Positions 6,180-22,681 of a DNA stretch of 64,000 nucleotides are shown here, piece after piece. Source of the DNA: a virus; IMG/VR virus record IMGVR_UViG_3300030333_007705, positions 10,016 through 74,015 of that record; one strand, 5' to 3'. Below the pieces are notes generated by a model. It had not been told where the DNA came from, made no database searches, and was given only the letters and a program-made list of their open reading frames with translations. Each line of letters opens with the position of its first letter. Within the stretch, counting starts at the first letter, position 1. The position numbers were made by a program, and so were the translations under genes.

Positions 6180-6277
6180 GTCGTCTCCTTGTCTCTTCGA
6201 CACCTATACAGTAGGCACGGATTCTCGTGGGTAAAGGGGCGCGAGCAAAAAACTATGCACGCACGAGCAAAAAACTT

Positions 6278-6439
6278 TCAACCCTTTGGAATGATTAGGG
6301 TTATTGTACCCTCGCGAGAGCCATAAGCCTCGCGGGTCTTGTTCTTCTCGATGGTCGCCGCCACGTCCTCGATGGACCAGCAGCCAATGCGGGACTGGAA
6401 TCGCTCCCACTCGCTTGGCTTGTGGAAGATGATTTCCAC
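6278..6439 (-). CDS. Hypothetical protein
   Basis: GTG with GGAG SD right after the upstream stop. Confidence 0.45.
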   Translation of the reverse strand: MEIIFHKPSEWERFQSRIGCWSIEDVAATIEKNKTREAYGSREGTITLIIPKG

Positions 6440-6440
6440 T

Positions 6441-6665
6441 TTAATCTCCGCAACTTGGGGGGTGTGACCAGTTCGCATACTGCCAGTCAGAGATGATGCG
6501 GGCCTTGCAAAGCTGGTCTGTCCAGTTGTTCCAAGCCTCGGAGCGGGCTGGGATGTCGGGCTCGCCGTCCTGCTCGTGGATATACTTAATCAGGGGCATC
6601 ATCTCTTCTTCAAAGACGCGCACGGCATCTGCGTGCAGCATCACTTTTGGAATGTCTCTCGCCAT
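6441..6665 (-). CDS. Phage hypothetical protein (DIPARSEAWNNWTDQLCK motif)
   Basis: SD GAGGAG, TAATG coupling. Confidence 0.7.
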   Translation of the reverse strand: MARDIPKVMLHADAVRVFEEEMMPLIKYIHEQDGEPDIPARSEAWNNWTDQLCKARIISDWQYANWSHPPSCGD

Positions 6666-6805
6666 TATAGCTCCTCTACTGTGACTCTTGCCGTCTCTAA
6701 CAGGACGTGCCAAGAATCGACTGTGAACTCGATTATCTCCACTCCCCAGAGCGCACACACAGCGATGAGCGCGGCTGCGAGGAGGAGTCTCCCGATTGTA
6801 ATCAC
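6665..6805 (-). CDS. 46-aa membrane peptide (not in ORF track)
   Basis: MITIGRLLLAAALIAVCALWGVE...; fills the gap exactly, with overlaps on both sides. Confidence 0.5.
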   Translation of the reverse strand: MITIGRLLLAAALIAVCALWGVEIIEFTVDSWHVLLETARVTVEEL

Positions 6806-6993
6806 TAGAACTTGACCTCGACTGAGCCCACGGTCGCGTAGCTATTGCACGCACCGACGAACTTGCTGATGTCGAAGCGCGGGTTCACGTTCTTCAGCTT
6901 GACTGCGAAGTTCATCGCGACCGTGTGACGGGTCTTGCTGTCTTCGATGGTCTTAACAACGTCTGCAATCATTTGGAAATCTTTGCGGGTCAT
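6805..6993 (-). CDS. Phage hypothetical protein (MTRKDFQMIA...NPRFD family)
   Basis: SD AGGAG; promoter at 7020-7047. Confidence 0.75.
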   Translation of the reverse strand: MTRKDFQMIADVVKTIEDSKTRHTVAMNFAVKLKNVNPRFDISKFVGACNSYATVGSVEVKF

Positions 6994-7084
6994 GTCCACT
7001 CCTTTGTTGGGACACTTGTAATGTAGGTACGCTCTCGCGCAGGTAAACAGGCACGAGTAAAAAACTTACAAGTGCCTGGAATCT

Positions 7085-7183
7085 CTAGTCTTTATCTGAG
7101 ATGTATTTCATTGTCACGAAGGCAGCTAGCCCCATGAGGGCATACAGGCCCAAGGCTTTGATAATCATCATGGTCCAGTCCAT
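7085..7183 (-). CDS. 32-aa membrane peptide
   Basis: TGATG coupling to the vWA gene; hydrophobic segment. Confidence 0.45.
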   Translation of the reverse strand: MDWTMMIIKALGLYALMGLAAFVTMKYISDKD

Positions 7184-8463
7184 CACTCGTCGATTCCGAT
7201 GATGCGCTCTGAGGTTGCGAAGTATGGTCGCTTGGCGTGGTACGTCGTGGTCATCCACATGCGCTGGCACTTACTGGCCTTGGGCTTGGGGGCCTCCATG
7301 TCCGTCAGGACGATATGACCATCGAAGTTGCGCTGGTTGACGTACTCAGTGGGCGGGTTGAAGTTCGTTCCACCGTACATGTATCGCTTCTGTGGGTGGC
7401 TCTGGCCCTTCTTCCAGACGAACACCTTGTCCTCTGCGACCTGTGTGTCGAAGGGGATGACAGTGAACGTGGCAAGGCCCGCCAACTTGTTGAGTTCAGC
7501 GTAGAAGGCAGCGAGCATGGAGTCGGACACCGAGCCAGACTGGTCGATGCTGACCGCGATGTTAGCAGTGCGGTTGACCTTGCGACCGGGGTGGACGTAG
7601 GCGTAGCGACGGTTCAGACGCTTGGGCGTGCTGCGCTTGTTGGCACGCTGCGAGGTCTTGACGAAGTAGCGAAGCACCTTGCGCCAGTCAACCTTCGAGG
7701 TCAGGCGCTCCAGAATCTCACGCTTGCAGGAGGCACCAACGGAGCCCCAGCCCTTGCTAGTGGCCTCGCCTGCTGCATCCTTCATAGCTTCCTTCAGTCG
7801 CTCCTTGGCAATATCCATCGCTTCCTGCGAGGCTGCGTTGGCCTCGCCCTGTCCCCACTCGTCATGCGAGTCGAACTGGCCTGCGGCGTCAGGGTCGAAT
7901 GGTTGGTTGCTGGGAGAGCCAGAGCCGCCGCCCTGACCGTCGCCGTCCTCGTCACCGGGCTCACCTTGCCCACCTTCCTGCTGCTCCTCGACCTTCTGGA
8001 TGAGCTTGTCGTAGTACCACTCAGCGGTCTTGTCACCGGGCATGTCCTCGAACATGGGACCACCAGGGATGCAGCACTTCTCAGGCAGGTTGTCTGCGCC
8101 GATATGATAGTTGATGGAGAGGTCCGCTGCGATGTTCCACAGCTTGAACTTCTGCGCCTCCTCTGGAGAGGGCTTGCCGCTGGTCATAACGCCAGCGAGT
8201 TCGTCAGGCAGGCGGCCAGTGACGTGCTCGAAGACGAGGTGGTAGAACTCGTGGACCAGAACGCCAGTGCGCTGCTTGTCAGTGAGCGGCTCGAAGAAGT
8301 CTGGATTGTAGACCATCTCGAAGTAACCATCCTCGTTGACTCGCACACCAGCGGTCGGGATGGACTTGTTCATCTTCTTCTCGATGCGGCGCGACAGCGC
8401 GGCGAAGAAGGGCTCCGACTGAAGCAGTCGGTAAACATGGTCATTGAGGTTGAAGTCGGACAT
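7183..8463 (-). CDS. HExxH metallopeptidase-like plus vWA domain protein (DUF2201-like)
   Basis: HEFYH motif, acidic/Gly linker, MIDAS DQSGS...GGTNF...LTD. Confidence 0.88.
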   Translation of the reverse strand: MSDFNLNDHVYRLLQSEPFFAALSRRIEKKMNKSIPTAGVRVNEDGYFEMVYNPDFFEPLTDKQRTGVLVHEFYHLVFEHVTGRLPDELAGVMTSGKPSPEEAQKFKLWNIAADLSINYHIGADNLPEKCCIPGGPMFEDMPGDKTAEWYYDKLIQKVEEQQEGGQGEPGDEDGDGQGGGSGSPSNQPFDPDAAGQFDSHDEWGQGEANAASQEAMDIAKERLKEAMKDAAGEATSKGWGSVGASCKREILERLTSKVDWRKVLRYFVKTSQRANKRSTPKRLNRRYAYVHPGRKVNRTANIAVSIDQSGSVSDSMLAAFYAELNKLAGLATFTVIPFDTQVAEDKVFVWKKGQSHPQKRYMYGGTNFNPPTEYVNQRNFDGHIVLTDMEAPKPKASKCQRMWMTTTYHAKRPYFATSERIIGIDE

Positions 8464-8724
8464 TATGTCCTCCATCGGTCGTCATCGGTTACAGAGATAA
8501 CGTAGGCACCACACCTACAGAGTAAATAAAAAAAGCAGCGAAGGGTCGATTTCTAGCAGAGCGACCGTGCTATCCTGTTTTGGTTTTTTCTTACATTCCG
8601 CACACTTACAGGCAAAAAGTGCGGGTCCATACTCTTGGCTCCATCGTCGCTGCTGGGAGCTTTTATAATAAAATCAATAAGTTAGTTGTTAGTTCATTTG
8701 AAACCTCCGTGATTCCAAAGGGTT

Positions 8725-8755
8725 GAGGCATCTGCTGGCCATGCCTCCCTGCGCC
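8725..8755 (-). ncRNA. Pseudoknot-like 3'-UTR element, copy 3
   Basis: GGC-GCAGG-GAGGCAT-G-GCC-AGCAG-ATGCCTC, 6 nt after the AAA gene stop; covaries with copies at 49640 and 49987. Confidence 0.6.
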
Positions 8756-8761
8756 TGAGTC

Positions 8762-9832
8762 TTAGGACTCGGTGGACTTCCCGGTCAGGATAGCCACCAG
8801 CTTGCCAGACACCGTTTCACCGTTGTCGGCCTGCGTCTTGTGGAACGAGGTGACGTTCTCCGTGTCACCCTTGCCGAGAGCCTGCCACAGCTTCATCACA
8901 GCCTCAGAGGGCAGGGAGACGAAGTAGTTGGCAAGGTTCTTGCACTGCTCCTCGGTCATCTTCTTGTGGAAGACCTCGGTGGACTCCATCTTCTCAATGA
9001 GAGCGCAGTGCTCGTTGATATTGAAGTCGGAGGTCTTATCGACCTTGCCGTCGTCGAGGATCATCTCGACCGTGACCTGCCGCTCGTAGTTCTTCACGAA
9101 GTCGTTGAAGGACACCGCAGCCTCGAAACCGACGAAGCCAGTGGCGAGGTGGAAGATGGCGGGGTTGTGGTCCTCGACACCGAGCATCCCAGCGGACGCG
9201 AGGCAGTCGTTGAGCCGCTTCCAAGAGCGACGCGAGGGGTAAACCTTGTTGGGCTCATAGTCCTCGTTGTGCTCCAAGTGAGAGCGGTTCTGGTTCACGA
9301 AGTCCCAGACCTCATCAGCCACGTTGCCCTTGGCCCAGGTGAGCCAGTCCTCGGTCGTGGGCTCCACGTCGAAGACGGTCCAGCGGTCAAGCTCGGCAGG
9401 GTCCATCTCGCCCACCTGATACTGCGAGCCATGCTCGCCACCGTTGACGGCAGCGATGATGACAGTATCGGGGTGAAGGTAGTTACCGAAAATCTTGCGA
9501 GAGTCGGTAAGCTCGAAGATGCCCTGGCGCACCTCTGGAATGGCGCGGTCAACCTCATCGAGGAAGAGGAGGACTGCACGCGAGCAGGCGTCAGCCAGCC
9601 AGTCGGGCGGGCAGAAGGACGTAACGTCGCCATCCGTGCGAGGAAGGCCAACGAGGTCGCCCTCAGTCATCTGTGATGCACGTCGTTCGACGACGGGCAG
9701 GCCCATGTCGCCAGCCACCTGATAGACAAGCTCAGACTTGCCTACGCCGTGACGACCACGGAGCATGAGCGGCTTCTTGACCGCGAGGACGTGAGGGGCA
9801 ACAGAAGTAAACGTCTTGAAATCGATAGCCAT
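8762..9832 (-). CDS. MoxR-like AAA+ ATPase, partner of the vWA protein
   Basis: Walker A GRHGVGKS, Walker B LLFLDE, MDPAELDRW, PSRRSW. Confidence 0.9.
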   Translation of the reverse strand: MAIDFKTFTSVAPHVLAVKKPLMLRGRHGVGKSELVYQVAGDMGLPVVERRASQMTEGDLVGLPRTDGDVTSFCPPDWLADACSRAVLLFLDEVDRAIPEVRQGIFELTDSRKIFGNYLHPDTVIIAAVNGGEHGSQYQVGEMDPAELDRWTVFDVEPTTEDWLTWAKGNVADEVWDFVNQNRSHLEHNEDYEPNKVYPSRRSWKRLNDCLASAGMLGVEDHNPAIFHLATGFVGFEAAVSFNDFVKNYERQVTVEMILDDGKVDKTSDFNINEHCALIEKMESTEVFHKKMTEEQCKNLANYFVSLPSEAVMKLWQALGKGDTENVTSFHKTQADNGETVSGKLVAILTGKSTES

Positions 9833-9928
9833 GATAACTCCGTGTCAGGCTAAGAGGGAACATATTTGGTGTCGGGCCTTCCGACATAACTAACGTAGGA
9901 ACCAGATTGTGCTGGTAAACACTTTTTT

Positions 9929-10579
9929 TTACTTTCGCGACTTTTTGAGCCAACGCTCTTGAATCACTAGGGTTTCTCCTGCGCCGATAGGCAGGACAGT
10001 GTAGGACCGCGAACCCTTGGTTGCGTGCAGGACATTCTGCTCGACATCGACGATGAGCACATCCTGGCCGCGAAGGCTCGGACGTAGCGGGCTCTGCATC
10101 GAGTCTCGAATCGTGACCATCGTACCCACCGCATAGAGAGGGCTCGCCGCTGCATTCGCCATCGCTCGTTGGACGTACTTGTTCTCAACCATCTTGCGAT
10201 ACAGCTTTTCGGACGGTATGTAGTTGGAATCATTGATGATTCTGTCCGCCGCATCGCTGAAGTAAGGCGGGTTTGCCTTGTAGTAGTTCGCAGCGAACAC
10301 CGCCTTGGTGCGCTTCTCAGGAGTCCACGACTCATTCCACGACTTGCGTGCGGCCTGGAAGGCCGGGTCGGAGTTCCTCTCGATGCGCTGATAGACCTCA
10401 TGCTGCTTCGCAGTGAGTCGGCCCCACTTCTTGGCAGATTCGAGCAAGGAAGACAGGAAGTTGCGCTCCCAATCCGTCAGCGTCGAGATTCCTTTCGCAG
10501 CCGTCTTCTCAATGCGAGCGACAAGCTCAGGGTTGTTCTGTCGAGGCTGTCGATTGTAGCGTCGTCCGTAGTATCCCAT
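9929..10579 (-). CDS. Hypothetical protein with C-terminal SH3-like domain
   Basis: GGAGACGAC leader; promoter at 10610-10637; C-terminal YAVGTMV... Confidence 0.75.
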   Translation of the reverse strand: MGYYGRRYNRQPRQNNPELVARIEKTAAKGISTLTDWERNFLSSLLESAKKWGRLTAKQHEVYQRIERNSDPAFQAARKSWNESWTPEKRTKAVFAANYYKANPPYFSDAADRIINDSNYIPSEKLYRKMVENKYVQRAMANAAASPLYAVGTMVTIRDSMQSPLRPSLRGQDVLIVDVEQNVLHATKGSRSYTVLPIGAGETLVIQERWLKKSRK

Positions 10580-10638
10580 CGTCGTCTCCATTGTCCGGGG
10601 TACGTGTAAAACATAGGCACGGGTTTCGCTGAGTAAAG

Positions 10639-10767
10639 AAAAAAAGATAACATGGCGTCCAGTCACCACACTGGATCGATGGTTCAGCTAGCATCGTTTT
10701 CCGCCACCCGTATACGCGGGCTTGAACTAAGGGGTCGGTTCAGTATCCGCCACCATGTCATCTTGGT
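10639..10767 (-). ncRNA. Structured small RNA (five-helix junction), unknown family
   Basis: 12-bp closing stem 10646-10657/10751-10762, four internal hairpins, own promoter at 10774-10801, U7 tract after the stem. Confidence 0.7.
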
Positions 10768-10809
10768 ATCTTTAATATAGTTACGAGAAAAAAGTAGTAA
10801 ACACCTTGA

Positions 10810-11019
10810 TCAAAGTTTTTCTAAGTCCTCGACAAACATCGAGTCCCAATCCCATCGATCGTTCCACTGGACCCATACCGACCACAGTGCCCCGTCGCGT
10901 TGGAAACAGGCGGTCGATGCCTCTTCGACCACGATGCCAAGAGCATCAGGGGGAATCTCTCCGTTGTTCCTGTGGACCTCTGGGTCATCCAGAAGTCTAA
11001 CCAAATCACCTACTTGCAT
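10810..11019 (-). CDS. SH3/KOW-like array protein A11
   Basis: MQVGDLV; 14-nt overlap junction. Confidence 0.8.
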   Translation of the reverse strand: MQVGDLVRLLDDPEVHRNNGEIPPDALGIVVEEASTACFQRDGALWSVWVQWNDRWDWDSMFVEDLEKL

Positions 11020-11212
11020 TGACCACCTTCAGAATGTTTGCCGCGTAAAAACCAGCGGGAGTGTATGTATCAACCCACTCGATGTAGGCTGTGGGTTGTC
11101 CGTGTGACGTGGAGCCTGTTTTAAGCACTACGCCAAGATACTTAGAGCCACGACCCAAAGTCTCGGTGGCTGAATAGTGCGACTCAAATGTAACCAAATC
11201 ACCGACTTGCAC
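11006..11212 (-). CDS. SH3/KOW-like array protein A10
   Basis: MQVGDLV...KVVNASR. Confidence 0.8.
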   Translation of the reverse strand: MQVGDLVTFESHYSATETLGRGSKYLGVVLKTGSTSHGQPTAYIEWVDTYTPAGFYAANILKVVNASR

Positions 11213-11381
11213 TGATTATCTCCAACATGCTGTTCACTTCTAGTGTTGGGCCTGGTTCCAGCCGGTCGTCATCAGTTTCGTATGTCCACTGCACCATGCA
11301 GTGTGCGCCTAGACTCTGCACCACTAGACCACAACCCAGCCTGGGAATCTCTTTATGTTTCACTAAGTTACCGACTTTCAC
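11199..11381 (-). CDS. SH3/KOW-like array protein A9
   Basis: MKVGNLV...EIISASR. Confidence 0.8.
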   Translation of the reverse strand: MKVGNLVKHKEIPRLGCGLVVQSLGAHCMVQWTYETDDDRLEPGPTLEVNSMLEIISASR

Positions 11382-11538
11382 TGATGACCCTCAACTGGCT
11401 CTGATACATATCGGCCTCGCCGTTTGGCCACTGGACTGTGGCGCGCTTGTCCAGGCTAGTAGTTCTCAAAATCTTGGCTACGATGCCCACGCCGTCTGTC
11501 TCCCAGCCTTTTTGCACAACCAAGTCACCGACTTGCAC
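11368..11538 (-). CDS. SH3/KOW-like array protein A8
   Basis: GTG start MQVGDLV...RVISESR. Confidence 0.8.
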   Translation of the reverse strand: MQVGDLVVQKGWETDGVGIVAKILRTTSLDKRATVQWPNGEADMYQSQLRVISESR

Positions 11539-11680
11539 TGACGACCTCGCACTGAGATGCAACGAACCAGACCGTGTGTCCGGTGCTGGTGAGTACCCTC
11601 AAGGTGCCGCCAGCGTTTGGCCGAGATAGCACCGTGGCCATCTGTCCATTAAAATATCTAATAATATCACCGACTTTCAA
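11525..11680 (-). CDS. SH3/KOW-like array protein A7 (51 aa, not in ORF track)
   Basis: TTG start MKVGDIIRYFNGQMATVLSRPNAGGTLRVLTSTGHTVWFVASQCEVVSASR. Confidence 0.75.
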   Translation of the reverse strand: MKVGDIIRYFNGQMATVLSRPNAGGTLRVLTSTGHTVWFVASQCEVVSASR

Positions 11681-11871
11681 CTTACCAACTCCAAATCGCC
11701 TTCAAGGTAGCGACCAGTCAGGCGACGGGCGTGGTGAGAGATGACACTGACGTGCCAAACCTTAGTGCCCTGAGCGGCTGAAAGCCACTGCCAAGACATG
11801 AGCATCGCAAGTGTGTTTTGTGGCAAGCCGATTGAGGCTCGCTTGATTCTCACTAGATTACCGGGCTGCAC
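11677..11871 (-). CDS. SH3/KOW-like array protein A6
   Basis: MQPGNLV...LELVS. Confidence 0.8.
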   Translation of the reverse strand: MQPGNLVRIKRASIGLPQNTLAMLMSWQWLSAAQGTKVWHVSVISHHARRLTGRYLEGDLELVS

Positions 11872-12037
11872 TAACTACCTCTGCACATCGCTTGAGTTCT
11901 CTCATGCTCATCCAAGTTGGGTTCTTGAAGTGAACGTCCTGTGTAACTAATATACGAACGTGATTGTAGTCAGTAAACTCTAAAATCAAACCAGTGTAGT
12001 TTGTTTCAGGAAACCTAATCAAATCACCTACTTGCAC
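11858..12037 (-). CDS. SH3/KOW-like array protein A5 (59 aa, not in ORF track)
   Basis: GTG start MQVGDLIRFPETNYTGLIL...EVVSAAR. Confidence 0.75.
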   Translation of the reverse strand: MQVGDLIRFPETNYTGLILEFTDYNHVRILVTQDVHFKNPTWMSMRELKRCAEVVSAAR

Positions 12038-12209
12038 TGATTAACTCCAAAAACGGCATCGCGCAACTTCTAGGCTCACGGTCAGGCATCATGGACCACT
12101 TGACGAGACATCGCCTAGCCTGGGGCGTCACCTCGACAATGAGCCCAACACCATACAACTCCGGTGGGGCCACGGCTGGCCTGATAGTCACCAAGTCACC
12201 GACTTTCAC
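12024..12209 (-). CDS. SH3/KOW-like array protein A4
   Basis: GTG start MKVGDLV...ELISASR. Confidence 0.8.
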   Translation of the reverse strand: MKVGDLVTIRPAVAPPELYGVGLIVEVTPQARRCLVKWSMMPDREPRSCAMPFLELISASR

Positions 12210-12252
12210 TGGCAACCTCCACGCCCCAAGGGGCTGCACAGCGCAGTCTCAC
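12196..12252 (-). pseudogene. Collapsed 18-codon array unit (VRLRCAAPWGVEVASESR*)
   Basis: GTG at the canonical junction position, in frame with a canonical EVASESR* end. Confidence 0.5.
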
Positions 12253-12418
12253 TGATGACTGTCACGTTTTTAGGGTCTGCATGAATATCATGAGGGTGGT
12301 CGAATGGTCTGATTCGCCAGACTGGATAGCGCTTCGAGCCGTCGTCGATGCCGACGATGAGGCCAAACTTTTCACCATACTGCTTTGTCTTTACTTTGAC
12401 TAAGTTACCGACTTTCAC
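12206..12418 (-). CDS. SH3/KOW-like array protein A3
   Basis: MKVGNLV...TVISE plus read-through tail. Confidence 0.8.
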   Translation of the reverse strand: MKVGNLVKVKTKQYGEKFGLIVGIDDGSKRYPVWRIRPFDHPHDIHADPKNVTVISETALCSPLGRGGCQ

Positions 12419-12581
12419 TGATAACCTCCAGTTGGTTCGCGAACCTCGCGGCACGAAAGCCGTTGTCAGGATTAACAGTGACAACCATCGTTTCGAGACT
12501 GTGTTGCACATCCACTACCAAAACAACCGGGTTGGACTCCAGTGTTTTAGATTTATATCTAACCAAGTCACCGGGCTGCAT
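12405..12581 (-). CDS. SH3/KOW-like array protein A2
   Basis: MQPGDLV...EVISESR. Confidence 0.8.
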   Translation of the reverse strand: MQPGDLVRYKSKTLESNPVVLVVDVQHSLETMVVTVNPDNGFRAARFANQLEVISESR

Positions 12582-12792
12582 TGACAACCTCCAACTCGTC
12601 GAGAGCCATAGGATGCAAGCCATCGTGGACTTGCCCAAGGCCGGGAGCATCGCGACCCTCGCCTTCAATACCAGGGTAGTGAACTTGAATCGTCATGTCG
12701 CCATGCGCTGCGAAAATCTTTGCGGCGACGCCAACGCGACCTTTGTAGAAGCGAGCGTAACCAACATACCTTACCAAGTCACCGACTTGCAT
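12568..12792 (-). CDS. SH3/KOW-like array protein A1
   Basis: MQVGDLV...EVVNAAR; SD AGGAG; promoter at 12825-12853. Confidence 0.8.
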   Translation of the reverse strand: MQVGDLVRYVGYARFYKGRVGVAAKIFAAHGDMTIQVHYPGIEGEGRDAPGLGQVHDGLHPMALDELEVVNAAR

Positions 12793-12863
12793 GTCCATCT
12801 CCTGTGTCATCCGTGGACAACTAAAACATAGTCACGCAGTCGGGACTGGTAAAGAAAAAAAGT

Positions 12864-12929
12864 CTACTGCACGATGGCGTAGACGAGACTAGCTAGGCAA
12901 ATCGTGCCATAAGAAACTGCAAGTGTCAT
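12864..12929 (-). CDS. 21-aa hydrophobic peptide
   Basis: SD AGGAG; MTLAVSYGTICLASLVYAIVQ. Confidence 0.35.
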   Translation of the reverse strand: MTLAVSYGTICLASLVYAIVQ

Positions 12930-12961
12930 CCTGTTTCTCCTTTTATTTCAATGAGTTATAG

Positions 12962-13129
12962 TTATGCCTTGAGGATGCGACTGCTGCCACAGGCAGTGCA
13001 GTTGCTCTCGCAGGCGGGGCGAGTGGGCTTGGGCTTGTTGAGGTATTTGCAACCACAAGAGCCACAGTAATAGTTGTAGGGTTCAGGCTTCGGCTTGGGT
13101 GCTGGACAGCACCAATAGCTCATAATCAT
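12962..13129 (-). CDS. Cys-rich zinc-ribbon-like small protein
   Basis: CGSCGC...CTACG; TAATG coupling. Confidence 0.6.
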   Translation of the reverse strand: MIMSYWCCPAPKPKPEPYNYYCGSCGCKYLNKPKPTRPACESNCTACGSSRILKA

Positions 13130-13341
13130 TAGATTACCTCTAGGTGGCTCCTTTGAAACCACCACGGTTTGCCATGTCGTTGTTGTGATGCAGACAACTC
13201 TGGACCAATAGGCTCGACGACACACTCGATGCCTATCGTCTTGACTACTAGCCCGACCCTGCCTGCTGCTTCTGTGTTGGGGTAGTCCTCGCTAATCTTT
13301 ACGAGGTTGCCAACTCTTGGTTTCGGGGGTCGTCCTTCCAT
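13129..13341 (-). CDS. SH3/KOW-like small protein (leaderless)
   Basis: RVGNLV...HLEVI; ATG 6 nt after -10. Confidence 0.75.
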   Translation of the reverse strand: MEGRPPKPRVGNLVKISEDYPNTEAAGRVGLVVKTIGIECVVEPIGPELSASQQRHGKPWWFQRSHLEVI

Positions 13342-13377
13342 GCTGATACCATAGGAACAGATAATGCAGAGTAAACA

Positions 13378-13767
13378 TTAAATCGAAATATGCCTGGAAA
13401 TGTAAATGTTTTCAAAGCCATAGCCGCGTGTTTCGTTGTCATCCATGTCTTCGCCAACGCGAACAAACTTGAAAAGCTCCGCGTAGTTAGGAGCGTTATC
13501 GTCGTCCTTGAGGCCAAACTCCGACAGGTCTTCACACTCCAGGCCCTCGATGAACTTCTCAATCATGGCGATCTCTGGATAGCTGTCATACCACTTGACA
13601 TGCTCCCAATGCATGAGCCAGTTGCCCTTGCCGTCGTAGTCGGTGTCAAGATTGTCAACGTCCCTCGTGCATAGCTTCTGCGTCTCCTCGCACTTGGCGA
13701 AAGCCGTCATCAAGGCTGGCATCAGTTCTGCATGAACTGCCAGTATTACTTCAGATCTGTATCCCAT
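13378..13767 (-). CDS. Phage hypothetical protein (MGYRSEV...KWYDSY...FVRVGED family)
   Basis: 129-aa ORF in operon context. Confidence 0.75.
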   Translation of the reverse strand: MGYRSEVILAVHAELMPALMTAFAKCEETQKLCTRDVDNLDTDYDGKGNWLMHWEHVKWYDSYPEIAMIEKFIEGLECEDLSEFGLKDDDNAPNYAELFKFVRVGEDMDDNETRGYGFENIYISRHISI

Positions 13768-14034
13768 TTACCATGCTCCGTTGTAAGACCAGCAGAAATC
13801 ATTATCCCACTGGCACCATTCTTCATACCATCCATCGACCATCCAGACACAACATGTTGTGCCATCGTCGTACCAGTCGCACCATTCGGGCTCCCAATAA
13901 TATGGATCTTCTGTGCAATAATCAGGCGTGTAATAGACTACCACGCCGCTTGTATTTGGCACCGGCCTAGTCTCAAGCTCGACCGTGCAGCATGACAACA
14001 ATAGGCACAGAGTCGCGAGAGTAAAGTTTTTCAT
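13768..14034 (-). CDS. Putative Cys/Trp-rich lipoprotein
   Basis: MKNFTLATLCLLLSC lipobox-like; SD GGAGGAG; ATGA overlap. Confidence 0.65.
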   Translation of the reverse strand: MKNFTLATLCLLLSCCTVELETRPVPNTSGVVVYYTPDYCTEDPYYWEPEWCDWYDDGTTCCVWMVDGWYEEWCQWDNDFCWSYNGAW

Positions 14035-14294
14035 CGACGCTCCTCCCACAGTCGCCAACCAGCCTTTGTGATGGCGTCTTCACTGTTCCTCTGTTTCTTG
14101 TGAGAGGCAAAGACCTCGCTGCCATCAGGCATACGAATGAGGTACTGTGAGCCTCGGATGTGCTCAACTACGAGCGCACCCTCAAAACCTTTCTGGGTGA
14201 TGAGTGAGCCAACGAGAGCTTGTCGCTCGCGGGCAAACTGTGCCCTATCTTCAGCGGTTAGCCGTCGGTTCCTTGTTCTGTCTCTGCGTCTCAT
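14031..14294 (-). CDS. Hypothetical protein, SH3-like C-terminal half
   Basis: Arg-rich N-terminus; VGSLI...ALVV...YLIR. Confidence 0.65.
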   Translation of the reverse strand: MRRRDRTRNRRLTAEDRAQFARERQALVGSLITQKGFEGALVVEHIRGSQYLIRMPDGSEVFASHKKQRNSEDAITKAGWRLWEERR

Positions 14295-14551
14295 ACTCTC
14301 TTCTCCGGGTAGAATCTATAGACAAGACGCCAGTGCTGGGCGCGTTCCTGCTTGGTAGCCTCATCCCAATAGAGAGACGGGGAGCTGTCATCTTCCCAAA
14401 CAGCCGACGCATACTGAAGTTCATAGTCGCTGTCTTGTCGCTTGAAAATCTGAACTGCGATATTCTCCAGAACCACTTGCCCTGCATCAACTGTATCAGT
14501 AACAAGCGAGCCAAACTTTGGGTGGTTAATATCGGGGTTAAATCGTGTCAT
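14291..14551 (-). CDS. Hypothetical protein
   Basis: Coupled ORF. Confidence 0.6.
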   Translation of the reverse strand: MTRFNPDINHPKFGSLVTDTVDAGQVVLENIAVQIFKRQDSDYELQYASAVWEDDSSPSLYWDEATKQERAQHWRLVYRFYPEKRV

Positions 14552-14720
14552 CGAAGTCGTCCTCTTCGTCGTTCACTGGTACTATAGGAACGCCATCAGG
14601 TAGAGTAAACCTGTCATCATCAGAAAAAACCAAATCGACTTCGCGATCTCCACTAACATCTCGTTTTTGTTCATCTTTTTTACTCCATCGAGTTATGTGG
14701 AACCATTCTTTTTCAGCCAT
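14538..14720 (-). CDS. Acidic hypothetical protein
   Basis: Start MAEKEW overlapping the upstream stop. Confidence 0.55.
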   Translation of the reverse strand: MAEKEWFHITRWSKKDEQKRDVSGDREVDLVFSDDDRFTLPDGVPIVPVNDEEDDFDDTI

Positions 14721-14973
14721 TCGATAGCAACTTGACTTCCCAGCACTGAACCTTGTCCGGGTTGTTTTGTCGCGGACGATATTGTGGCGCCTTGAACCAG
14801 TGAACCCAGAGGTCATAGCGAGCCTGCTTTTTGCCTCCAAGCACCTTGGCGTAATGCTCTTCCAAAACATATTCCTTGTGAAGAACCATGCCAAGTGTGT
14901 GGCACGGCTCAGGCGCATAAGCCTCAGTTACCATCGCACCGGGTTTCAATTGTTTGCAGTCTTTCATATTCAT
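14713..14973 (-). CDS. SH3/KOW-like small protein
   Basis: LKPGAMV...LGMVL...WVHW. Confidence 0.7.
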   Translation of the reverse strand: MNMKDCKQLKPGAMVTEAYAPEPCHTLGMVLHKEYVLEEHYAKVLGGKKQARYDLWVHWFKAPQYRPRQNNPDKVQCWEVKLLSNG

Positions 14974-15155
14974 GGTGCTATGAACTTCTCCTTCTCCTCT
15001 GAAAAGGAATCAGGCAGTGAGACTGTCTCGCCGCGCACTTGCTCCAGCTTGCAACTGTCCTCGATGTCAGCAATCATATTGTCAACGTCTTCAAGTGCGC
15101 GTGTGATCTTGTCTTTGACGCTGCGAAGCTGTTTCAGTTTTTGTTCGTCTGTCAT
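14970..15155 (-). CDS. Small coiled-coil protein
   Basis: GGAGACGAC leader; promoter at 15173-15200. Confidence 0.7.
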   Translation of the reverse strand: MTDEQKLKQLRSVKDKITRALEDVDNMIADIEDSCKLEQVRGETVSLPDSFSEEKEKFIAP

Positions 15156-15203
15156 TGTCGTCTCCTGCGTGTAACATAGGCACGCTCCGTCGCGAGTAAA
15201 AAA

Positions 15204-15386
15204 CTATGCGGGCGACACGACAAAAAAACTTTTCGCCGCTTTCCACTCTTCAGGATCATCTGCCGTCACGATGAACGGACCCTTCGCATGACCTAGACTC
15301 TTTGTCACCTGAACCACCAGCTTTGATGGCAGGATGTTAGCATGGTTTTGATAAGCCTTGCTCATCACCAAGTCTCCAACTTTCAT
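15204..15386 (-). CDS. SH3/KOW-like small protein
   Basis: MKVGDLV. Confidence 0.75.
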   Translation of the reverse strand: MKVGDLVMSKAYQNHANILPSKLVVQVTKSLGHAKGPFIVTADDPEEWKAAKSFFVVSPA

Positions 15387-15646
15387 TTGACTACCTCCAA
15401 GAAGTCACCGTAGTGCGAAAGCGAATCACCGCGCACTGTATTGAGATTAAAGATACCGCCCCAACCATAACCATCCTCTTCTGGTCCTGTGATTACAATC
15501 GCCAACTGACCGTCCAGATTTTCATCAAAGTTGTCATTACCGGGCGGGCGAAGCTCCTTACCGAATCCGCGACGGGGTGGTGCATGTACGAAGCGGACCA
15601 ATGTGCCAGCCGGAATGTCTTTAGGGGAGTTGCGCCAGTTCTTCAT
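15383..15646 (-). CDS. SH3/KOW-like small protein (leaderless)
   Basis: PAGTLV...FLEVVK; ATG 6 nt after -10. Confidence 0.75.
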   Translation of the reverse strand: MKNWRNSPKDIPAGTLVRFVHAPPRRGFGKELRPPGNDNFDENLDGQLAIVITGPEEDGYGWGGIFNLNTVRGDSLSHYGDFLEVVK

Positions 15647-15682
15647 GCTTAAACCGTAGGAACAAAATCTAGCGAGTAAAGA

Positions 15683-15889
15683 CTATTTTACGTGTTTGAG
15701 ATCGCGGCGCACTTGGAACATCGGTTTGTCATGTCCAGACCAATGCACAGTGACATGGGTGCCTGGATGGCGTGGGACACTACTCAAGTTCTCGATGTCT
15801 GTCACCAAGCCTACCGCGCCACGAGCGGCAAAGTTGCACGTCAGCTTCTTGCCGTAAGCAGAAAGCTCAACTAAATCACCGACTTTCAC
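15683..15889 (-). CDS. SH3/KOW-like array protein
   Basis: GTG start MKVGDLV; 14-nt overlap. Confidence 0.78.
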   Translation of the reverse strand: MKVGDLVELSAYGKKLTCNFAARGAVGLVTDIENLSSVPRHPGTHVTVHWSGHDKPMFQVRRDLKHVK

Positions 15890-16064
15890 TGACAAGCTCC
15901 AGTTCCATTTCGTTCCACCAAGTCCTATCTGCTCCCGGCCAATCGACCTCGTAGTAGACTATGCCGTAGTCGTCTTCATACATATCAATGACTATTCCAT
16001 AGCCGTAGTCAACGCCAAGCATCGAAGCATCATTCTTTGGCAGAACAACATCACCGACGTTCAT
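15876..16064 (-). CDS. SH3/KOW-like array protein
   Basis: MNVGDVV...ELVSESR. Confidence 0.78.
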   Translation of the reverse strand: MNVGDVVLPKNDASMLGVDYGYGIVIDMYEDDYGIVYYEVDWPGADRTWWNEMELELVSESR

Positions 16065-16281
16065 TGTCCCCACCAAGATGGATCACCACCTGCTTCGATG
16101 AGTCGTCGAGATCAAAGGCGCTGTGCCAGCCAGACTGCTCTGGGTGCAGAAACCACTTGATGTAATATGGCTCCGGCTGGCTTCCGTGCGCGTTACTGTG
16201 GTCTACCTCAGAGACGATACCAATGTCGCCGTCAAGAATATATAGAACGTGGTCGCCTACTTTGAAGTCTGATTGCATCAT
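16051..16281 (-). CDS. SH3/KOW-like array protein
   Basis: FKVGDHV...IGIV...YIKW. Confidence 0.75.
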   Translation of the reverse strand: MMQSDFKVGDHVLYILDGDIGIVSEVDHSNAHGSQPEPYYIKWFLHPEQSGWHSAFDLDDSSKQVVIHLGGDNERR

Positions 16282-16649
16282 GGGTCCATGAGTTCTGAGA
16301 GGTTGTCTCGCCAACCGATGGCCTCGTCAACGTAGTCTCCATAAGTATCTCGCCACTTGATGCTGCCATCGAAGCACTTGATGTAGACATACTCTGGGCC
16401 TAGATCTTCCATTGAAGGATTCTGGAGTATACATGGATTGATGTAGTCATCCAGGTATTCTGTACCATGAGTCTTGATGATGCGGAAGCCTCCTCGCGGG
16501 GCAGCGAGCAAAATGTGAGTCAACAAAACGTCGTTGTCGATTGCTGCCAATGTCGGGAACATATGGCTAGGGTAGCCATCATAATGACAGTATGTGCCAA
16601 CATATGTCCCAGGCTCAGTCTCAACATAAACATTAGAGCGCGTGCCCAT
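16278..16649 (-). CDS. Phage hypothetical protein (MGTRS...YCHYDGYP family)
   Basis: SD GGAGG; motif YCHYDGYP. Confidence 0.75.
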   Translation of the reverse strand: MGTRSNVYVETEPGTYVGTYCHYDGYPSHMFPTLAAIDNDVLLTHILLAAPRGGFRIIKTHGTEYLDDYINPCILQNPSMEDLGPEYVYIKCFDGSIKWRDTYGDYVDEAIGWRDNLSELMDP

Positions 16650-16650
16650 T

Positions 16651-16944
16651 TTATGCCTCCAAGTAGACGATGCCCGCTGGTAGCTCACCAGACACTACGC
16701 CACCGTGCTTTGCAATCACATCCAACACGGTCTGCGAGGGCACCCAACCATAGACAGTCTCAGTCAGGTTTTCCGGGTTCTCTGCGTACCTCTCCAAGAG
16801 GGGCTCAGGCTTGTTTGGGAAGCCAACCTCGACCTCATCATATGAGGCCGCGTTGTCAGACCTTGGGCTGCAATATGCGTTGCTGTTAGCTTGCACGCTC
16901 ATGCTGAATCCGTCAGCGCACTTGATTCTTTTATTCTTGCTCAT
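16651..16944 (-). CDS. Phage hypothetical protein (CADGFSMSVQA...EVGFP family)
   Basis: 14-nt overlap with the upstream SH3-like gene. Confidence 0.75.
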   Translation of the reverse strand: MSKNKRIKCADGFSMSVQANSNAYCSPRSDNAASYDEVEVGFPNKPEPLLERYAENPENLTETVYGWVPSQTVLDVIAKHGGVVSGELPAGIVYLEA

Positions 16945-17128
16945 CTACAATCTCCAGCCATGCCTTGCTGTTCCATGAATAATCAGGGCAACCCGGCGGT
17001 GGGTTAATCCAATGTACCTTGTAGTCACAACCGTTCATTGGTTGGTTGCGAATGTTCACTTCTACTATAATCCCCAAACCGCTCCGGTCAAGGGCATGTG
17101 TATTATTTACTAAATCACCGACTTTCAT
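16931..17128 (-). CDS. SH3/KOW-like array protein
   Basis: MKVGDLV...LEIV. Confidence 0.78.
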   Translation of the reverse strand: MKVGDLVNNTHALDRSGLGIIVEVNIRNQPMNGCDYKVHWINPPPGCPDYSWNSKAWLEIVDEQE

Positions 17129-17279
17129 GACTCTCCACCGCTGAGTAGTCGCAGTAAATCATGCTTTCCTCTTTGGGGAACTCGACCAACATCGTGCCTT
17201 GGTTCGCATAGAACCTAACAATCTTGCCCGCGCCATATTCCTCTCTGCCTTTCACTATGACGGTATCACCGATTTTCAT
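17115..17279 (-). CDS. SH3/KOW-like array protein (54 aa, not in ORF track)
   Basis: MKIGDTVIVKGREEYGAGKIVRF...SHESR. Confidence 0.75.
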   Translation of the reverse strand: MKIGDTVIVKGREEYGAGKIVRFYANQGTMLVEFPKEESMIYCDYSAVESHESR

Positions 17280-17526
17280 TTATCTTCTCTTCTTTCTGCT
17301 TGCGAGTCAGGCGCTTGAACTTGTTCTCGGCCCGCATGGCCGAGGAACGACTAGGGTGAGGCTCCAGCAAAACAATCCTCGTGGGCCTTCTTCTTCTAGT
17401 GTATTTTGCACCACGTTTGGTGTGGTTGTGTTCGTACAACCTTCTCTCCGTGTTCGTCGTTACACCAGCATAGTAAGAACCATCAGCGCACAGTAAAACA
17501 TAAAACCACCAGAGATCAACTTTCAC
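17266..17526 (-). CDS. GIY-YIG nuclease (UPF0213/YhbQ-like)
   Basis: FYVLLCADGSYYAGVTTNTERRLYEHN...GAKYT...AMRAE. Confidence 0.88.
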   Translation of the reverse strand: MKVDLWWFYVLLCADGSYYAGVTTNTERRLYEHNHTKRGAKYTRRRRPTRIVLLEPHPSRSSAMRAENKFKRLTRKQKEEKINENR

Positions 17527-17728
17527 TTATTATTTCAACGTCTTCAAAGCCAAGATAAACTTGGGTGCCTTCAAAATCCACAGTCACGACCCTGTTGATG
17601 GCCGCTGCGACAACGACACCAATCTTGTCCTCATAGCCAATGCCGCGTCGTGTCTTCCTGCTCGAAAGTCTAACCAGATCACCGGGCTTCGGCTGAGTTG
17701 ACGATTTTGATTTCTGAATATCTCGCAC
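17516..17728 (-). CDS. SH3/KOW-like array protein (canonical start codon mutated)
   Basis: KPGDLV...EIISES; CCG at the expected GTG position 17692. Confidence 0.6.
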   Translation of the reverse strand: MRDIQKSKSSTQPKPGDLVRLSSRKTRRGIGYEDKIGVVVAAAINRVVTVDFEGTQVYLGFEDVEIISES

Positions 17729-17867
17729 TTCTCTTTACCCCGTTTCTCAAATCCAGCAGCCTATACATTTGCTCACCAAAGGGCACTCCTTCTCTCGGCA
17801 GCTTTTCTAGAACAATATAGTAACGCCTTGTCTCATATAAAACAGAAACTAAATCACCCGGCTTCAC
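17679..17867 (-). CDS. SH3/KOW-like array protein
   Basis: GTG start MKPGDLV. Confidence 0.78.
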   Translation of the reverse strand: MKPGDLVSVLYETRRYYIVLEKLPREGVPFGEQMYRLLDLRNGVKRSARYSEIKIVNSAEAR

Positions 17868-18063
17868 TGAGAACCTCGACCCAGCCACTTGTGATAGCGC
17901 TCAGGTCCATTGGCATCGCTTCTCCGTTATTGGAGGGCCACAAGACAAGCTGGGTGCGCGACGGGCTATGAATGAGGGCACGCTCTACTAATGCGCCGAC
18001 GATGATGCCAACGTCACCCTGGTCTACATCACGCACTAAGCTGCCAATCGGAATCGAGGTCAT
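17854..18063 (-). CDS. SH3/KOW-like array protein
   Basis: PIGSLV...EVLSEAG. Confidence 0.75.
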   Translation of the reverse strand: MTSIPIGSLVRDVDQGDVGIIVGALVERALIHSPSRTQLVLWPSNNGEAMPMDLSAITSGWVEVLSEAG

Positions 18064-18235
18064 CGTGTTTCATCTCCTCAAGGCTTGCCTCTGCATAGGT
18101 GCCCTGCGTTCCTGACTCGTCGTCGAGCCATAAAATCCTGTAGTTGTTGTCGCCAAGTGAGCTTGTTACTACACCTAATGTAGACTCCAAAACTTGACCG
18201 TCAATCTTCATGTGAACCAAATCACCAGTAATCAT
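18029..18235 (-). CDS. SH3/KOW-like array protein
   Basis: MITGDLV. Confidence 0.75.
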   Translation of the reverse strand: MITGDLVHMKIDGQVLESTLGVVTSSLGDNNYRILWLDDESGTQGTYAEASLEEMKHDDLDSDWQLSA

Positions 18236-18429
18236 TTTCCCACGTCCTTCGCCATGTTGGCGCTTGAAATATACATGTAGCCGCCCTTGTTGTAGGCTGG
18301 CGCAGTGCATTTTGCCTTGAATAGAATCTGTCTTGTCGCGATGGCGTCACCGCACTCCAAGCAGGTGTTGTAGCCGAGCGCCTTGCGGCGGTCAGAATAC
18401 TCATCGTCACACTTAATACAAATAGCCAC
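18232..18429 (-). CDS. C4 zinc-finger protein (TraR/DksA zinc-finger-like)
   Basis: CIKC...RRKAL...CLEC; GGAGACGAC-GTG leader. Confidence 0.7.
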   Translation of the reverse strand: MAICIKCDDEYSDRRKALGYNTCLECGDAIATRQILFKAKCTAPAYNKGGYMYISSANMAKDVGK

Positions 18430-18448
18430 GTCGTCTCCATTGTAAAGG

Positions 18449-19003
18449 CTAGAAAGTAAGTTGTAGTTGCCGACCCTGCGGGTTGGTCTGTTCTTCCTTA
18501 ACTATAGGCACCGTCATAACAAAGTCAAGCATGTCAATGTGCTTAACTCCTCTTTCGCCTGTGTCGTCTTCATAAGAGACATAGGCTGTACGATCGCCGC
18601 CCCATGCTATGGTCCTTGAGCCGTCTGCGCTTAGGGCCTGAACAACCTCAAAGAGTTCACGCTCATACATCGTGTACATCGTTTCGCCATCGTCGTCTTT
18701 GTGCCAAAACTCTTCTCCTAGCACGGCGAAAAAGTGCTCAGTCAAGTCGCGACCGTCAACCTCTTCTTCCCAATAGCAAGTCTCGCTGTATGCTTCCAGA
18801 TTGCCGTTGTCGGTGTCAACGTAGAACTCAACCCAACCTTCGGGAACAGGTCGGTGCAGTTGACTTGGCTCATGCTTTCGCCAGTAGAGATAAAACCCTT
18901 CGTGGTCATAGCTGAGAAACTTGTCGCAAAAGTGTTCAATAACTTTTTCTGCTATCTCAGGCCCACACTTGGGCTTGAAGCAATAGCTTGCTAAACTTGG
19001 CAT
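18449..19003 (-). CDS. Hypothetical acidic protein
   Basis: GGAGGACGAC-ATG leader; promoter at 19021-19048. Confidence 0.75.
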   Translation of the reverse strand: MPSLASYCFKPKCGPEIAEKVIEHFCDKFLSYDHEGFYLYWRKHEPSQLHRPVPEGWVEFYVDTDNGNLEAYSETCYWEEEVDGRDLTEHFFAVLGEEFWHKDDDGETMYTMYERELFEVVQALSADGSRTIAWGGDRTAYVSYEDDTGERGVKHIDMLDFVMTVPIVKEEQTNPQGRQLQLTF

Positions 19004-19055
19004 GTCGTCCTCCTGCCTAAAGTATAGTTACGTGTGTGTACGAGTAAAATATTTT

Positions 19056-19265
19056 TTACCCAGAAACCTCGAACTCAGTGTCATCTAAGAGTAAAATCCT
19101 ATCACCACACAAGACTCGATAAACATCTCCAGGCCAAAGATCCGCTTCCGATGGGAGTTCCTCGGAATGAAGCCCAACGATGAGTCCGTGGGTACACTTA
19201 CCAAGAGCCAACTCTTCAGGGTCGTGCAGCTTGACTAGGGTGCCGATAGTGAACTTTGCAGCCAT
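19056..19265 (-). CDS. SH3/KOW-like small protein
   Basis: FTIGTLV...FEVSG. Confidence 0.7.
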   Translation of the reverse strand: MAAKFTIGTLVKLHDPEELALGKCTHGLIVGLHSEELPSEADLWPGDVYRVLCGDRILLLDDTEFEVSG

Positions 19266-19474
19266 ATTCCTGAATCTAGTTTATCGTCGCTGAGAATGGT
19301 GTCAACGCTTTCACTTGTTACACTTAGTTTGTCATCTGGCCACACAACAGTGACAGCCAAATACTCGCCTTCCATCGTGCTTGGTCGGTACATAAAAGGC
19401 TCGTCAGATGTTACCAATCCCCATTCAGTTTCGCCGTCCAGATTGACATAGCCGATCAAATCGCCTTTGTTCAT
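19235..19474 (-). CDS. SH3/KOW-like small protein
   Basis: MNKGDLI...WGLV. Confidence 0.7.
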   Translation of the reverse strand: MNKGDLIGYVNLDGETEWGLVTSDEPFMYRPSTMEGEYLAVTVVWPDDKLSVTSESVDTILSDDKLDSGIWLQSSLSAP

Positions 19475-19564
19475 ATTAAAAACCCACCCTATCCCGCCGC
19501 GTTCATTCACGGCCCAACCAGTACCTACACTATAGGGACGACAATCTACAGTGTAAAGGTAGTT

Positions 19565-20347: not shown

Positions 20348-20395
20348 TGGGTCGTCCTCCTGTGGCTTTCGGGTACATCTAAACTATAGTCACGC

Positions 20396-20737: not shown

Positions 20738-20921
20738 TCAGGGTTCCGATATTCCATCGGGCTATGTACCTGTATTCGCCCTCAACTAAAATCCTGGCGT
20801 ATGAGCCTCCGTCTAACATCTCGATAATCAAGAACGGAGTCCTGTCACGATAAAGCCGCACGAGCCAAGGACTGTCTCCAGTTGATGTGCTGTTCACGTA
20901 TGCAAGTGTGCCTGCCTTCAT
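20727..20921 (-). CDS. SH3/KOW-like small protein (leaderless)
   Basis: MKAGTLA; ATG 6 nt after -10 TATAAT. Confidence 0.7.
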   Translation of the reverse strand: MKAGTLAYVNSTSTGDSPWLVRLYRDRTPFLIIEMLDGGSYARILVEGEYRYIARWNIGTLNEN

Positions 20922-22676: not shown

Positions 22677-22681
22677 TCACC

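Follow-up and report, generated by a model that had tools for sequence, protein, structure and literature searches.

The predicted RNA gene and its borders

The DNA analysed here, called the window, is a stretch of 64,000 nucleotides (positions 10,016 to 74,015) of the IMG/VR virus record IMGVR_UViG_3300030333_007705, a 74-kb sequence of an uncultured marine phage with an estimated completeness of 41%. The phage is one of a clade of marine myoviruses, likewise uncultured, whose genomes measure about 180-190 kb, and its gene content (a DnaE-like polymerase, DnaB, RNR, GroEL and a tail sheath) is that of a myovirus other than T4-type. Between the last gene of an array encoding SH3/KOW-like microproteins and the gene P0001, the minus strand carries a predicted gene for a small, highly folded non-coding RNA (ncRNA), with a promoter motif at each edge (Table 1). 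An earlier note on this DNA had proposed at this place a small RNA that stands alone, does not code for protein, folds into several helices and is served by a promoter and terminator of its own, and this predicted layout turned out to be shared by homologues in other phages. Most of the anatomy given in that note is confirmed, and its proposals on function found no support. The placement directly after the microprotein array, also pointed out there, applies to the window but is not conserved.

Table 1. The RNA gene, its predicted helices and its immediate neighbours in the window
Feature	Position	Strand	Remarks
RNA gene unit, including promoter and U-run	10639-10801	minus	
RNA-gene promoter: -35 TTTACT (10801-10796), 16-nt spacer, -10 TATATT (10779-10774)	10774-10801	minus	Member of the TTTAC-N17-TAYNNT family
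RNA core, 117 nt, from the 5' to the 3' strand of P1	10646-10762	minus	Backed by the fold and six covariance-model homologues
P1, 5' strand GAUGACAUGGUG	10751-10762	minus	Pairs with CGCCAUGUUAUC (10646-10657), 12 bp including G-U; two extra A-U pairs possible (12-14 bp)
P2 hairpin UGAAC/GUUCA with conserved 10-nt loop CGACCCCUUA	10723-10742	minus	Helix uncertain
P3 hairpin GCCCG-CGUAUA-CGGGU	10706-10721	minus	Variable, peripheral
29-nt block: junction GGCGGAAAA and P4 hairpin CGAUG-CUAGCUGAAC-CAUCG	10677-10705	minus	Nearly invariant
P5 hairpin UCCAGU-GUGGUG-ACUGGA	10658-10675	minus	No spacer before the 3' strand of P1
U7 tract	10639-10645	minus	Directly 3' of P1; with P1, likely intrinsic terminator
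Second family promoter, for the downstream gene	10610-10637	minus	Begins immediately past the U-run; 3' edge of the cassette
P0001, 216 aa	9929-10579	minus	Neighbour gene, outside the RNA; anchor for related loci
Last gene of the SH3/KOW-like microprotein array, 69 aa, ending ...FVEDLEKL	10810-11019	minus	Context only

The promoter described in the earlier note, TTTACT-N16-TATATT, was found on the minus strand ahead of the RNA and resembles a sigma-70 promoter. It belongs to a family with the pattern TTTAC-N17-TAYNNT, of which the window contains 17 copies where 0.84 would be expected, every one of them on the minus strand. The family consensus is TTTAC(T/C)-N10-(C)GT(G/T)CCTAYNTT; its copies lie at 6208-23323 and at 39907 and 50841, most of them clustered in the region of small genes. 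One copy (8499-8526) has an inverted repeat, GTAGG...CCTAC, within its spacer.

The 5' strand of P1 starts about 12 nt past the promoter, its partner follows 90 nt further on and the U7 tract comes directly after it, which agrees with the 12-bp closing stem with G-U pairs and the T7 run described previously. The predicted transcript measures about 122-128 nt, with a start about 1-5 nt 5' of the core and with the U-tail included. As sequence, the four inner hairpins named in the note (UGAAC/GUUCA, GCCCG/CGGGU, CGAUG/CAUCG and UCCAGU/ACUGGA) are all present. Its two repeats, GGUGGCGGA and CUGAACC, each indeed occur twice in the RNA, but the first copy of CUGAACC is not conserved in the homologues.

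Homologues and gene neighbourhoods

Related loci were collected with P0001 as anchor, which gave 14 loci from IMG/VR and 80 from marine metagenomes (Tara and deep-ocean samples), 94 in total; at least 200 nt upstream of P0001 are available in 89 of them. A covariance model built from the single window sequence finds the RNA in six of the 80 metagenome loci, on contigs of related myoviruses, with bit scores of 151 (L225), 148 (L231, L233 and L239), 90 (L210) and 80 (L215). The identity of these six homologues to the window RNA is 76-96%. Seven copies are known when the window is included; five of the six homologue sequences are distinct (L231 is identical to L233), giving six distinct sequences in all. 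Homology to the window extends from the predicted start to the U-run, and the flanking promoter sequences differ.

The same arrangement of signals is observed around every copy. A promoter predicted from sequence lies directly upstream (4-8 nt) in all seven, and in each of the six homologues it is a family promoter located 4-8 nt 5' of CAAGAU or UAAGAU. At the other end, a predicted closing stem around a 90-nt insert is followed by a U-run of 3-7 in 7/7 copies; in the L231 group this run is shorter, homologues showing UCUUUU or UCUUUC and then CUUUAC. In 6/6 homologues the U-run after the closing stem runs into the -35 element of another promoter-like site, two of these downstream sites being off consensus (TTTAT in L233, and TAGGTT as the -10 element in L210). 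A promoter stands between the RNA and the next gene in every copy. Furthermore, in L231 a separate terminator-like hairpin with a T-run already precedes the RNA promoter.

The genes on both sides vary. In the window and in L210, the RNA is preceded by the ...FVEDLEKL gene and followed by P0001. L215 has an extra 81-aa gene upstream and again P0001 downstream; the ...FVEDLEKL gene is also found upstream in L215, as in L002 and L003. In L231, L233 and L239, the upstream gene is a homologue of the window gene 13378-13767, and downstream an extra SH3-like small gene comes before P0001. The same extra gene, then P0001, follows the RNA in L225, whose contig starts 52 nt before the RNA. Altogether, the RNA occupies at least three different gene neighbourhoods. 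The earlier suggestion that it serves as a ligand of the neighbouring KOW-like proteins finds no support: the neighbours of the RNA vary from phage to phage, and those proteins are retained in most relatives that lack the RNA.

Indeed, the RNA is absent from 88 of the 94 related loci, including L002, L003 and L209, which are the closest to the window (about 85% amino acid identity in P0001). The loci that carry it are scattered over P0001 lineages with 63-73% amino acid identity to the window. It is likewise absent from whole related phage records, four of which are rated 92-100% complete, as assessed with blastn and the covariance models R1 and R2. In L002 and L003, the upstream microprotein gene and its promoter are kept and this promoter joins the P0001 leader CGTACCC directly, the RNA, the U-run and the second promoter being missing as a single block of about 163 nt.

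Searches beyond these loci did not yield further members. The DNA of the element had no match in a phage collection with megablast or blastn, and no close relative of the phage was found among 50,697 phage records. In IMG/VR, the invariant-block patterns GGYGGAAAACNNNNNCTAGCTGAAC and CCGACCCCTYA-N0-1-GTTYRAGCCC gave 0 matches. In GTDB genomes, the former gave 0 matches and the latter a single one, L289, which was rejected as a chance match (covariance-model E = 3.2). Two looser pattern scans of IMG/VR returned 74 loci for GGTGGCGGANNNTGAACC and more than 118 for GGTGGCGGA-N25-50-GGTGGCGGA, all of them chance occurrences or Gly-rich coding repeats. A literature search for the invariant sequences found no mention of them.

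Conservation of the RNA

Nucleotide identity is higher for the RNA than for the neighbour gene P0001 in every pair compared (76-100% versus 66-88%). The values are 95.7 versus 72.3% between the window and L225, 100 versus 86.2% between L231 and L233, and 86.3 versus 66.2% between L210 and L215. Conservation is most pronounced in the 29-nt block, composed of GG(C/U)GGAAAA and the P4 hairpin, which is identical in the seven copies save for a single C-to-U change (L215). Almost no variation is seen either in the P2 loop, CGACCCCU(U/C)A, or in the segment GUUYRAGCCC. Such a pattern means that the transcript is under strong purifying selection, that the cassette was exchanged laterally in recent times, or both, and each of these readings speaks against a neutral spacer.

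Secondary structure of the RNA

The 127-nt stretch has a minimum free energy (MFE) of -46.8 kcal/mol, compared with -33.4 +/- 3.7 kcal/mol for 200 dinucleotide shuffles (z -3.65), of which none (0/200) was as good. In the window, the fold of the minus strand is somewhat stronger than that of the plus strand. Several pairs are constant as G-U or switch only between G-U and Watson-Crick; an RNA read from the minus strand is favoured because such pairs become A-C mismatches on the plus strand.

Helix statistics were obtained from the model-guided alignment A3 with its six distinct sequences. Under the five-helix model, the share of paired cells is 95.4%, versus 25-48% when the partners are slid by 1-3 columns, and five pairs are changed on both sides. 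P1 is paired in 100% of cells and contains two compensatory pairs, namely U-A/C-G in L210 and a U-A/U-G/C-G series at the eighth pair, as well as two further A-U/G-U changes. The covariation check suggested in the earlier note thus shows a closing helix preserved with compensatory changes, within the low power of six distinct sequences, and the P1 helix is established. In P5, 94% of cells are paired and three one-sided changes stay paired as G-U, with a loop that varies in sequence and length. P3 is reduced in L210 and L215 to about 3 bp instead of 5, with a new loop and a retained GCC...GGU base; P3 and P5 are both likely helices.

The interior of the fold is partly resolved, with a local P2 and a pseudoknot as the two arrangements to be considered. 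For local P2, 80% of cells are paired and two pairs show double changes. Alternatively, GUUYR could pair with the invariant UGAAC of the P4 loop, which would form a pseudoknot; this pairing is 100% paired, with one-sided changes only. The idea that the second UGAAC competes for GUUCA had been put forward earlier; this pairing fits all homologues and is still a serious contender beside local P2. Both P3 and P4 are found in the MFE structures of three homologues.

Known RNA families and coding potential

The Rfam search proposed in the earlier note gave no family match. With Rfam 15 (4227 models) at gathering scores, only three tRNAs were detected in the window, all elsewhere, and nothing matched the element; over 10300-11100, nothing appeared even at E<=10, the tRNA, Y-RNA-like and CRISPR-DR models included. 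No Rfam match overlaps the RNA in L210, L215, L231 or L225 either. ARAGORN reported no tRNA or tmRNA over the element at default or 95% thresholds, and its calls at 60-70% thresholds were mutually inconsistent, on both strands, and were discarded as noise. The view that the RNA is not a tRNA is therefore upheld; besides, the loop of P5 is GUGGUG or UACGUGCC, not a T-loop. Several likenesses perceived by eye (the D-arm and T-loop of tRNA-Leu, GACCCC/GAAC of 5S rRNA, P15-17 of RNase P and type I-C/I-F CRISPR repeats) had no covariance-model support and were set aside as chance or unprovable. A replication origin or a primer RNA was also rejected, most relatives being without the element. As no Rfam family fits, we class the RNA as a new family, that of a stand-alone structured small RNA of phages.

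The homologues also bear out the absence of a credible open reading frame (ORF), start codon and frame not being conserved. The 25-codon frame of the minus strand begins with an ATG in GATGACATGG, 12 nt past the -10 hexamer, and this ATG is lost in 5/6 homologues, which read GATAAC, GACAAC or GATAGC. A 55-codon frame meets a stop after 7 codons in L231, L233 and L239. In L210, indels of +1, +1, +1 and -5 break every frame on both strands.

Interpretation and alternative explanations

We lean towards the view that the element is a self-contained mobile gene for a stable, highly folded ncRNA of about 125 nt that acts in trans, probably as a protein-binding decoy or scaffold. At the level of sequence, the comparison establishes its framework, a predicted promoter-RNA-terminator unit that is accessory and mobile, does not depend on its neighbours and is conserved over the extent of its transcript. 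The RNA would be transcribed early by the host RNA polymerase, transcription would terminate at P1 and the U-run, and the paired ends would shield the product from exonucleases and so confer stability. It would then act in trans as a folded molecule, the nearly invariant junction, P4 hairpin and P2 loop constituting a putative surface through which it would be recognised by a protein of host or phage, or by some other ligand. Its role would be that of a decoy or scaffold rather than that of an antisense regulator or cis leader. Indeed, a closed 5'/3' stem combined with constant junctions and loops, and with peripheral hairpins that vary, is typical of RNAs that form ribonucleoproteins (RNPs) or bind ligands, and not of seed-type antisense RNAs. 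The cassette itself may be gained and lost via recombination at the flanking promoter/terminator repeats, as proposed for promoter-early stem-loop (PeSL) motifs.

Several observations weigh against this interpretation. Regarding the ends of the RNA, a long stem around a 90-nt multibranch insert departs from the textbook form of an intrinsic terminator, interruptions occur in the U-run of the L231 group, and the transcript ends are predicted from sequence alone. Regarding the fold, the earlier note had counted five helices, of which P1, P2 and P5 are strong in the thermodynamic ensemble of the window sequence, but P3 and P4 are displaced there by alternatives and have a pair probability of only about 0.01-0.02; the five-helix model reaches -39.7 kcal/mol, versus -46.8 for the MFE structure. 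P2 has a C-U mismatch in 3/6 distinct sequences, and RNAalifold favours CGG/CCG plus CCCC/GG.GG over local P2. P4 never varies, which makes the alignment uninformative on P4 as a helix, and the single-sequence folds of L210 and L215 differ. Four homologues are 92-96% identical to the window, so that covariation relies on few events. The high identity beside a diverged neighbour gene could in part come from recent horizontal transfer, not from selection. Finally, we infer the protein-binding decoy step from the architecture alone.

A competing possibility, unlikely in our opinion, is that of an antisense small RNA, in which the exposed invariant 10-nt loop of P4 and/or the junction of the 29-nt block would serve as seed, the stem and U-tail as an Hfq-type 3' module, and a host or phage mRNA or a stable RNA as target. 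The near-invariance of the 29-nt block does resemble a seed constrained by its target, and a 3' stem with a U-run is present. On the other hand, the longest complementarity within the 74-kb phage record is 11 nt, which is the chance level, part of the invariant block is itself helical, and a closed, multi-helix shape with paired ends is typical of RNP or structural RNAs rather than of Hfq-dependent seeds.

A bolder version of the trans-acting decoy reading, in which the element represents a new class of tertiary-folded phage RNA, an anti-defence or host-takeover decoy that binds and neutralises a host protein or a small signalling molecule via the invariant core of junction, P4 and P2 loop and spreads among marine phages as a promoter-bounded cassette, appears distinctly unlikely.

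The element might also have no RNA function and be a composite terminator/insulator and PeSL-like recombination module, which ends the microprotein operon and restarts transcription. The stem and U-run fit exactly in between two promoters, close relatives differ by an indel of the unit, and PeSL promoter-terminator motifs mediate shuffling of this kind in T4-like phages (PMC2839356, PMC4122927). However, about 30 nt would suffice for a terminator, whereas the element has 117 nt, five helices, a 29-nt interior block and an identity above that of a protein gene. Every copy has its own promoter, and the terminator-like hairpin and T-run of L231 are already present ahead of it. A mere terminator would leave the nearly invariant interior unexplained, and we regard this explanation as very doubtful.

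A mimic of host RNA acting as an anti-defence decoy is quite improbable as well, be it tRNA-like (against anticodon nucleases) or a mimic of a CRISPR repeat in the manner of RNA anti-CRISPRs (Racrs) and solitary repeat units. The motif GUUYRAGCCC...GGYGGAAAAC bears a superficial likeness to a repeat of 27-32 nt that has a hairpin and a tail of GAAA(A)C. In our reading, five helices on one junction with P5 stacked on P1 recall the topology of a class II tRNA; there are short by-eye similarities to the T-loop and variable arm of the phage's own tRNA-Leu/Met, and a sister cassette in L219 (described below) has a perfect T-arm-like hairpin. Phage mimics of CRISPR repeats do exist (Camara-Wilpert et al. 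2023, PMC10651486): Racrs and solitary repeat units are small phage ncRNA genes with their own promoter and terminator. The present element, which as an accessory small RNA gene of a phage falls in the same broad class as Racrs, is similar to them in its patchy distribution, in a predicted promoter and terminator of its own and in a GAAA-rich tail behind a hairpin. Nevertheless, it has no match to the CRISPR-DR models of Rfam, the candidate repeat hairpin is not conserved in length (L210 and L215 have a version of 3 bp), and the invariant sequence reaches well past it, over a region much larger than one repeat. For the tRNA-like version, the position of P5 carries no T-loop and the ARAGORN and Rfam results given above are negative.

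A cis leader, i.e. a riboswitch or attenuator governing read-through into the downstream gene, would be in keeping with the aptamer-like layout of conserved junctions and loops with variable P3 and P5, and with a closing stem that doubles as a terminator directly ahead of a gene. In marine phage origin, compact multi-helix fold, conserved junctions and loops and variable peripheral hairpins, the element also resembles the orphan riboswitch-like motifs manA, wcaG and PhotoRC of Rfam. Those, however, are cis elements of defined genes, whereas here the RNA has its own predicted promoter and terminator, variable neighbours and no Rfam riboswitch match. The downstream genes do not form a consistent class: P0001 in the window, L210 and L215 versus the SH3-like small gene in L225, L231, L233 and L239. 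No alternative anti-terminator pairing is evident. A cis leader is highly unlikely because a promoter of its own always precedes the next gene and because that gene varies.

The proposal of the earlier note that the RNA is a CsrA/RsmA sponge, with the GGA of two GCGGA junction strands titrating host CsrA, can hardly be credited. Like CsrB, RsmY and RsmZ, such an RNA would act in trans by binding protein through GGA motifs, and two single-stranded GGA do occur in all copies, as GCGGA(U/C) or GCGGGAU and as GG(C/U)GGAAAAC. Sponges, however, have many GGA, mostly in hairpin loops, whereas the element has two conserved ones in its junctions, outside hairpin loops and without the A(N)GGA context of known CsrA sites; a third is inside P5 and is lost in L225. 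Two or three GGA per about 118 nt compare with about 1.8 by chance, the conservation extends far past these motifs, and no CsrB, RsmY or RsmZ covariance model shows similarity. Lastly, a micro-ORF (the 25-codon frame of the minus strand or a 42-codon frame of the plus strand) has the position of the ATG in its favour and is effectively refuted by the homologues, in which that ATG is mostly lost, the lengths of the L210 and L215 indels are not divisible by three, and substitutions preserve structure and are not concentrated at third codon positions.

Other features of the window and related phages

A second promoter-to-promoter unit, of 227 nt and without a long ORF, was noticed in the related marine phage loci L219 (1006-1233) and L228 (1750-1977). 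Its fold is very strong, at -86 kcal/mol over 216 nt (z -3.83), and Rfam gave no hit for it. Two hairpins, one of which (ACGGGG-UUCGAUU-CCCCGU) is perfectly T-arm-like in the manner of a tRNA, lie within a 7-bp stem, CUGGCGA/UCGCCAG, and a U-run follows. Further 3', the unit has a strong ribosome-binding site (RBS), a hydrophobic micro-ORF of 21 codons and a terminator, which leads directly into another promoter.

The microprotein array of the window (10810-16076, minus strand) consists of genes for proteins of 50-90 aa that start with M(K/Q)VGDLV and end with ...(V/I)(I/V)S(E/A)(S/A)R. Homologous units occur in other orders and numbers in related loci (L215, L231), which fits cassette shuffling. 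P0001 itself has no match to a Pfam or PHROG family. Its leader, (A/G)CGTACCC...GGAGA (10580-10609 in the window; also L002-L007), is conserved though everything upstream differs, and may be a conserved 5' untranslated region (UTR) element of P0001. In L009-L014, where P0001 has 41-46% amino acid identity, three tandem TCTTGACA boxes followed by TGTATAATGTATAT are found about 120 nt upstream of the P0001 homologue. These replace the TTTAC promoter and form a different, very strong-looking promoter architecture.

Also on the minus strand of the window, a MoxR/AAA_5-type ATPase (8762-9832) forms a pair with a DUF2201 metallopeptidase/VWA protein (7183-8475); this region (7183-9832) has a GC content of 56-59%, versus about 45% in the rest of the window. 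The GroEL-type chaperonin (28786-30405, minus strand) has 539 aa (phrog_5725, E 3.5e-143).

Relation to known phage elements and significance

Stand-alone stable RNAs such as species 1/2 (rnaC/rnaD) of phage T4 and the Y-RNA-like YrlA are found in phages and bacteria, with an unknown or decoy function. Such RNAs measure about 110-140 nt, have paired ends around a multi-helix body, lie close to the tRNA or early regions of large lytic phages and probably form RNPs, and the element resembles them in this. In contrast, it has no sequence or covariance-model similarity to them (Rfam, E<=10) and no T-loop or D-loop motifs, and it lies outside the tRNA cluster, the tRNAs of the window being at 22.6-24.3 kb.

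In T4-type phages, composite terminator/promoter motifs flank the small accessory units of a hyperplastic early region, known as PeSL cassettes (Arbiol et al. 2010, PMC2839356; Comeau et al. 2014, PMC4122927). The present cassette is likewise a small accessory unit bounded by motifs, with promoter motifs at both edges and a clean indel of about 163 nt between close relatives, and its RNA is found in three contexts. The differences concern the motif sequence, which is not that of T4 early promoters, the cargo, which is a structured ncRNA here and an ORF in PeSL cassettes, and the phage, which is not T4-like and has no close relative in culture.

To our knowledge, few structured ncRNAs of lytic phages are understood. 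Those that are, such as pRNA, Racr, pseudo-ToxI and phage tRNAs, each revealed a mechanism of host takeover or counter-defence. With seven copies and a narrow known distribution, the element is a well-founded candidate family, not yet a mechanism. It bears several marks of a functional RNA, namely a sequence constraint that appears stronger than that on a neighbour protein gene, compensatory changes in P1 and a nearly invariant interior, and its cassette appears to be exchanged between lineages of abundant uncultured marine myoviruses. The shuffling of units bounded by promoters and terminators, described for ORFs of T4-type phages, can thus carry RNA genes in an unrelated group of phages.

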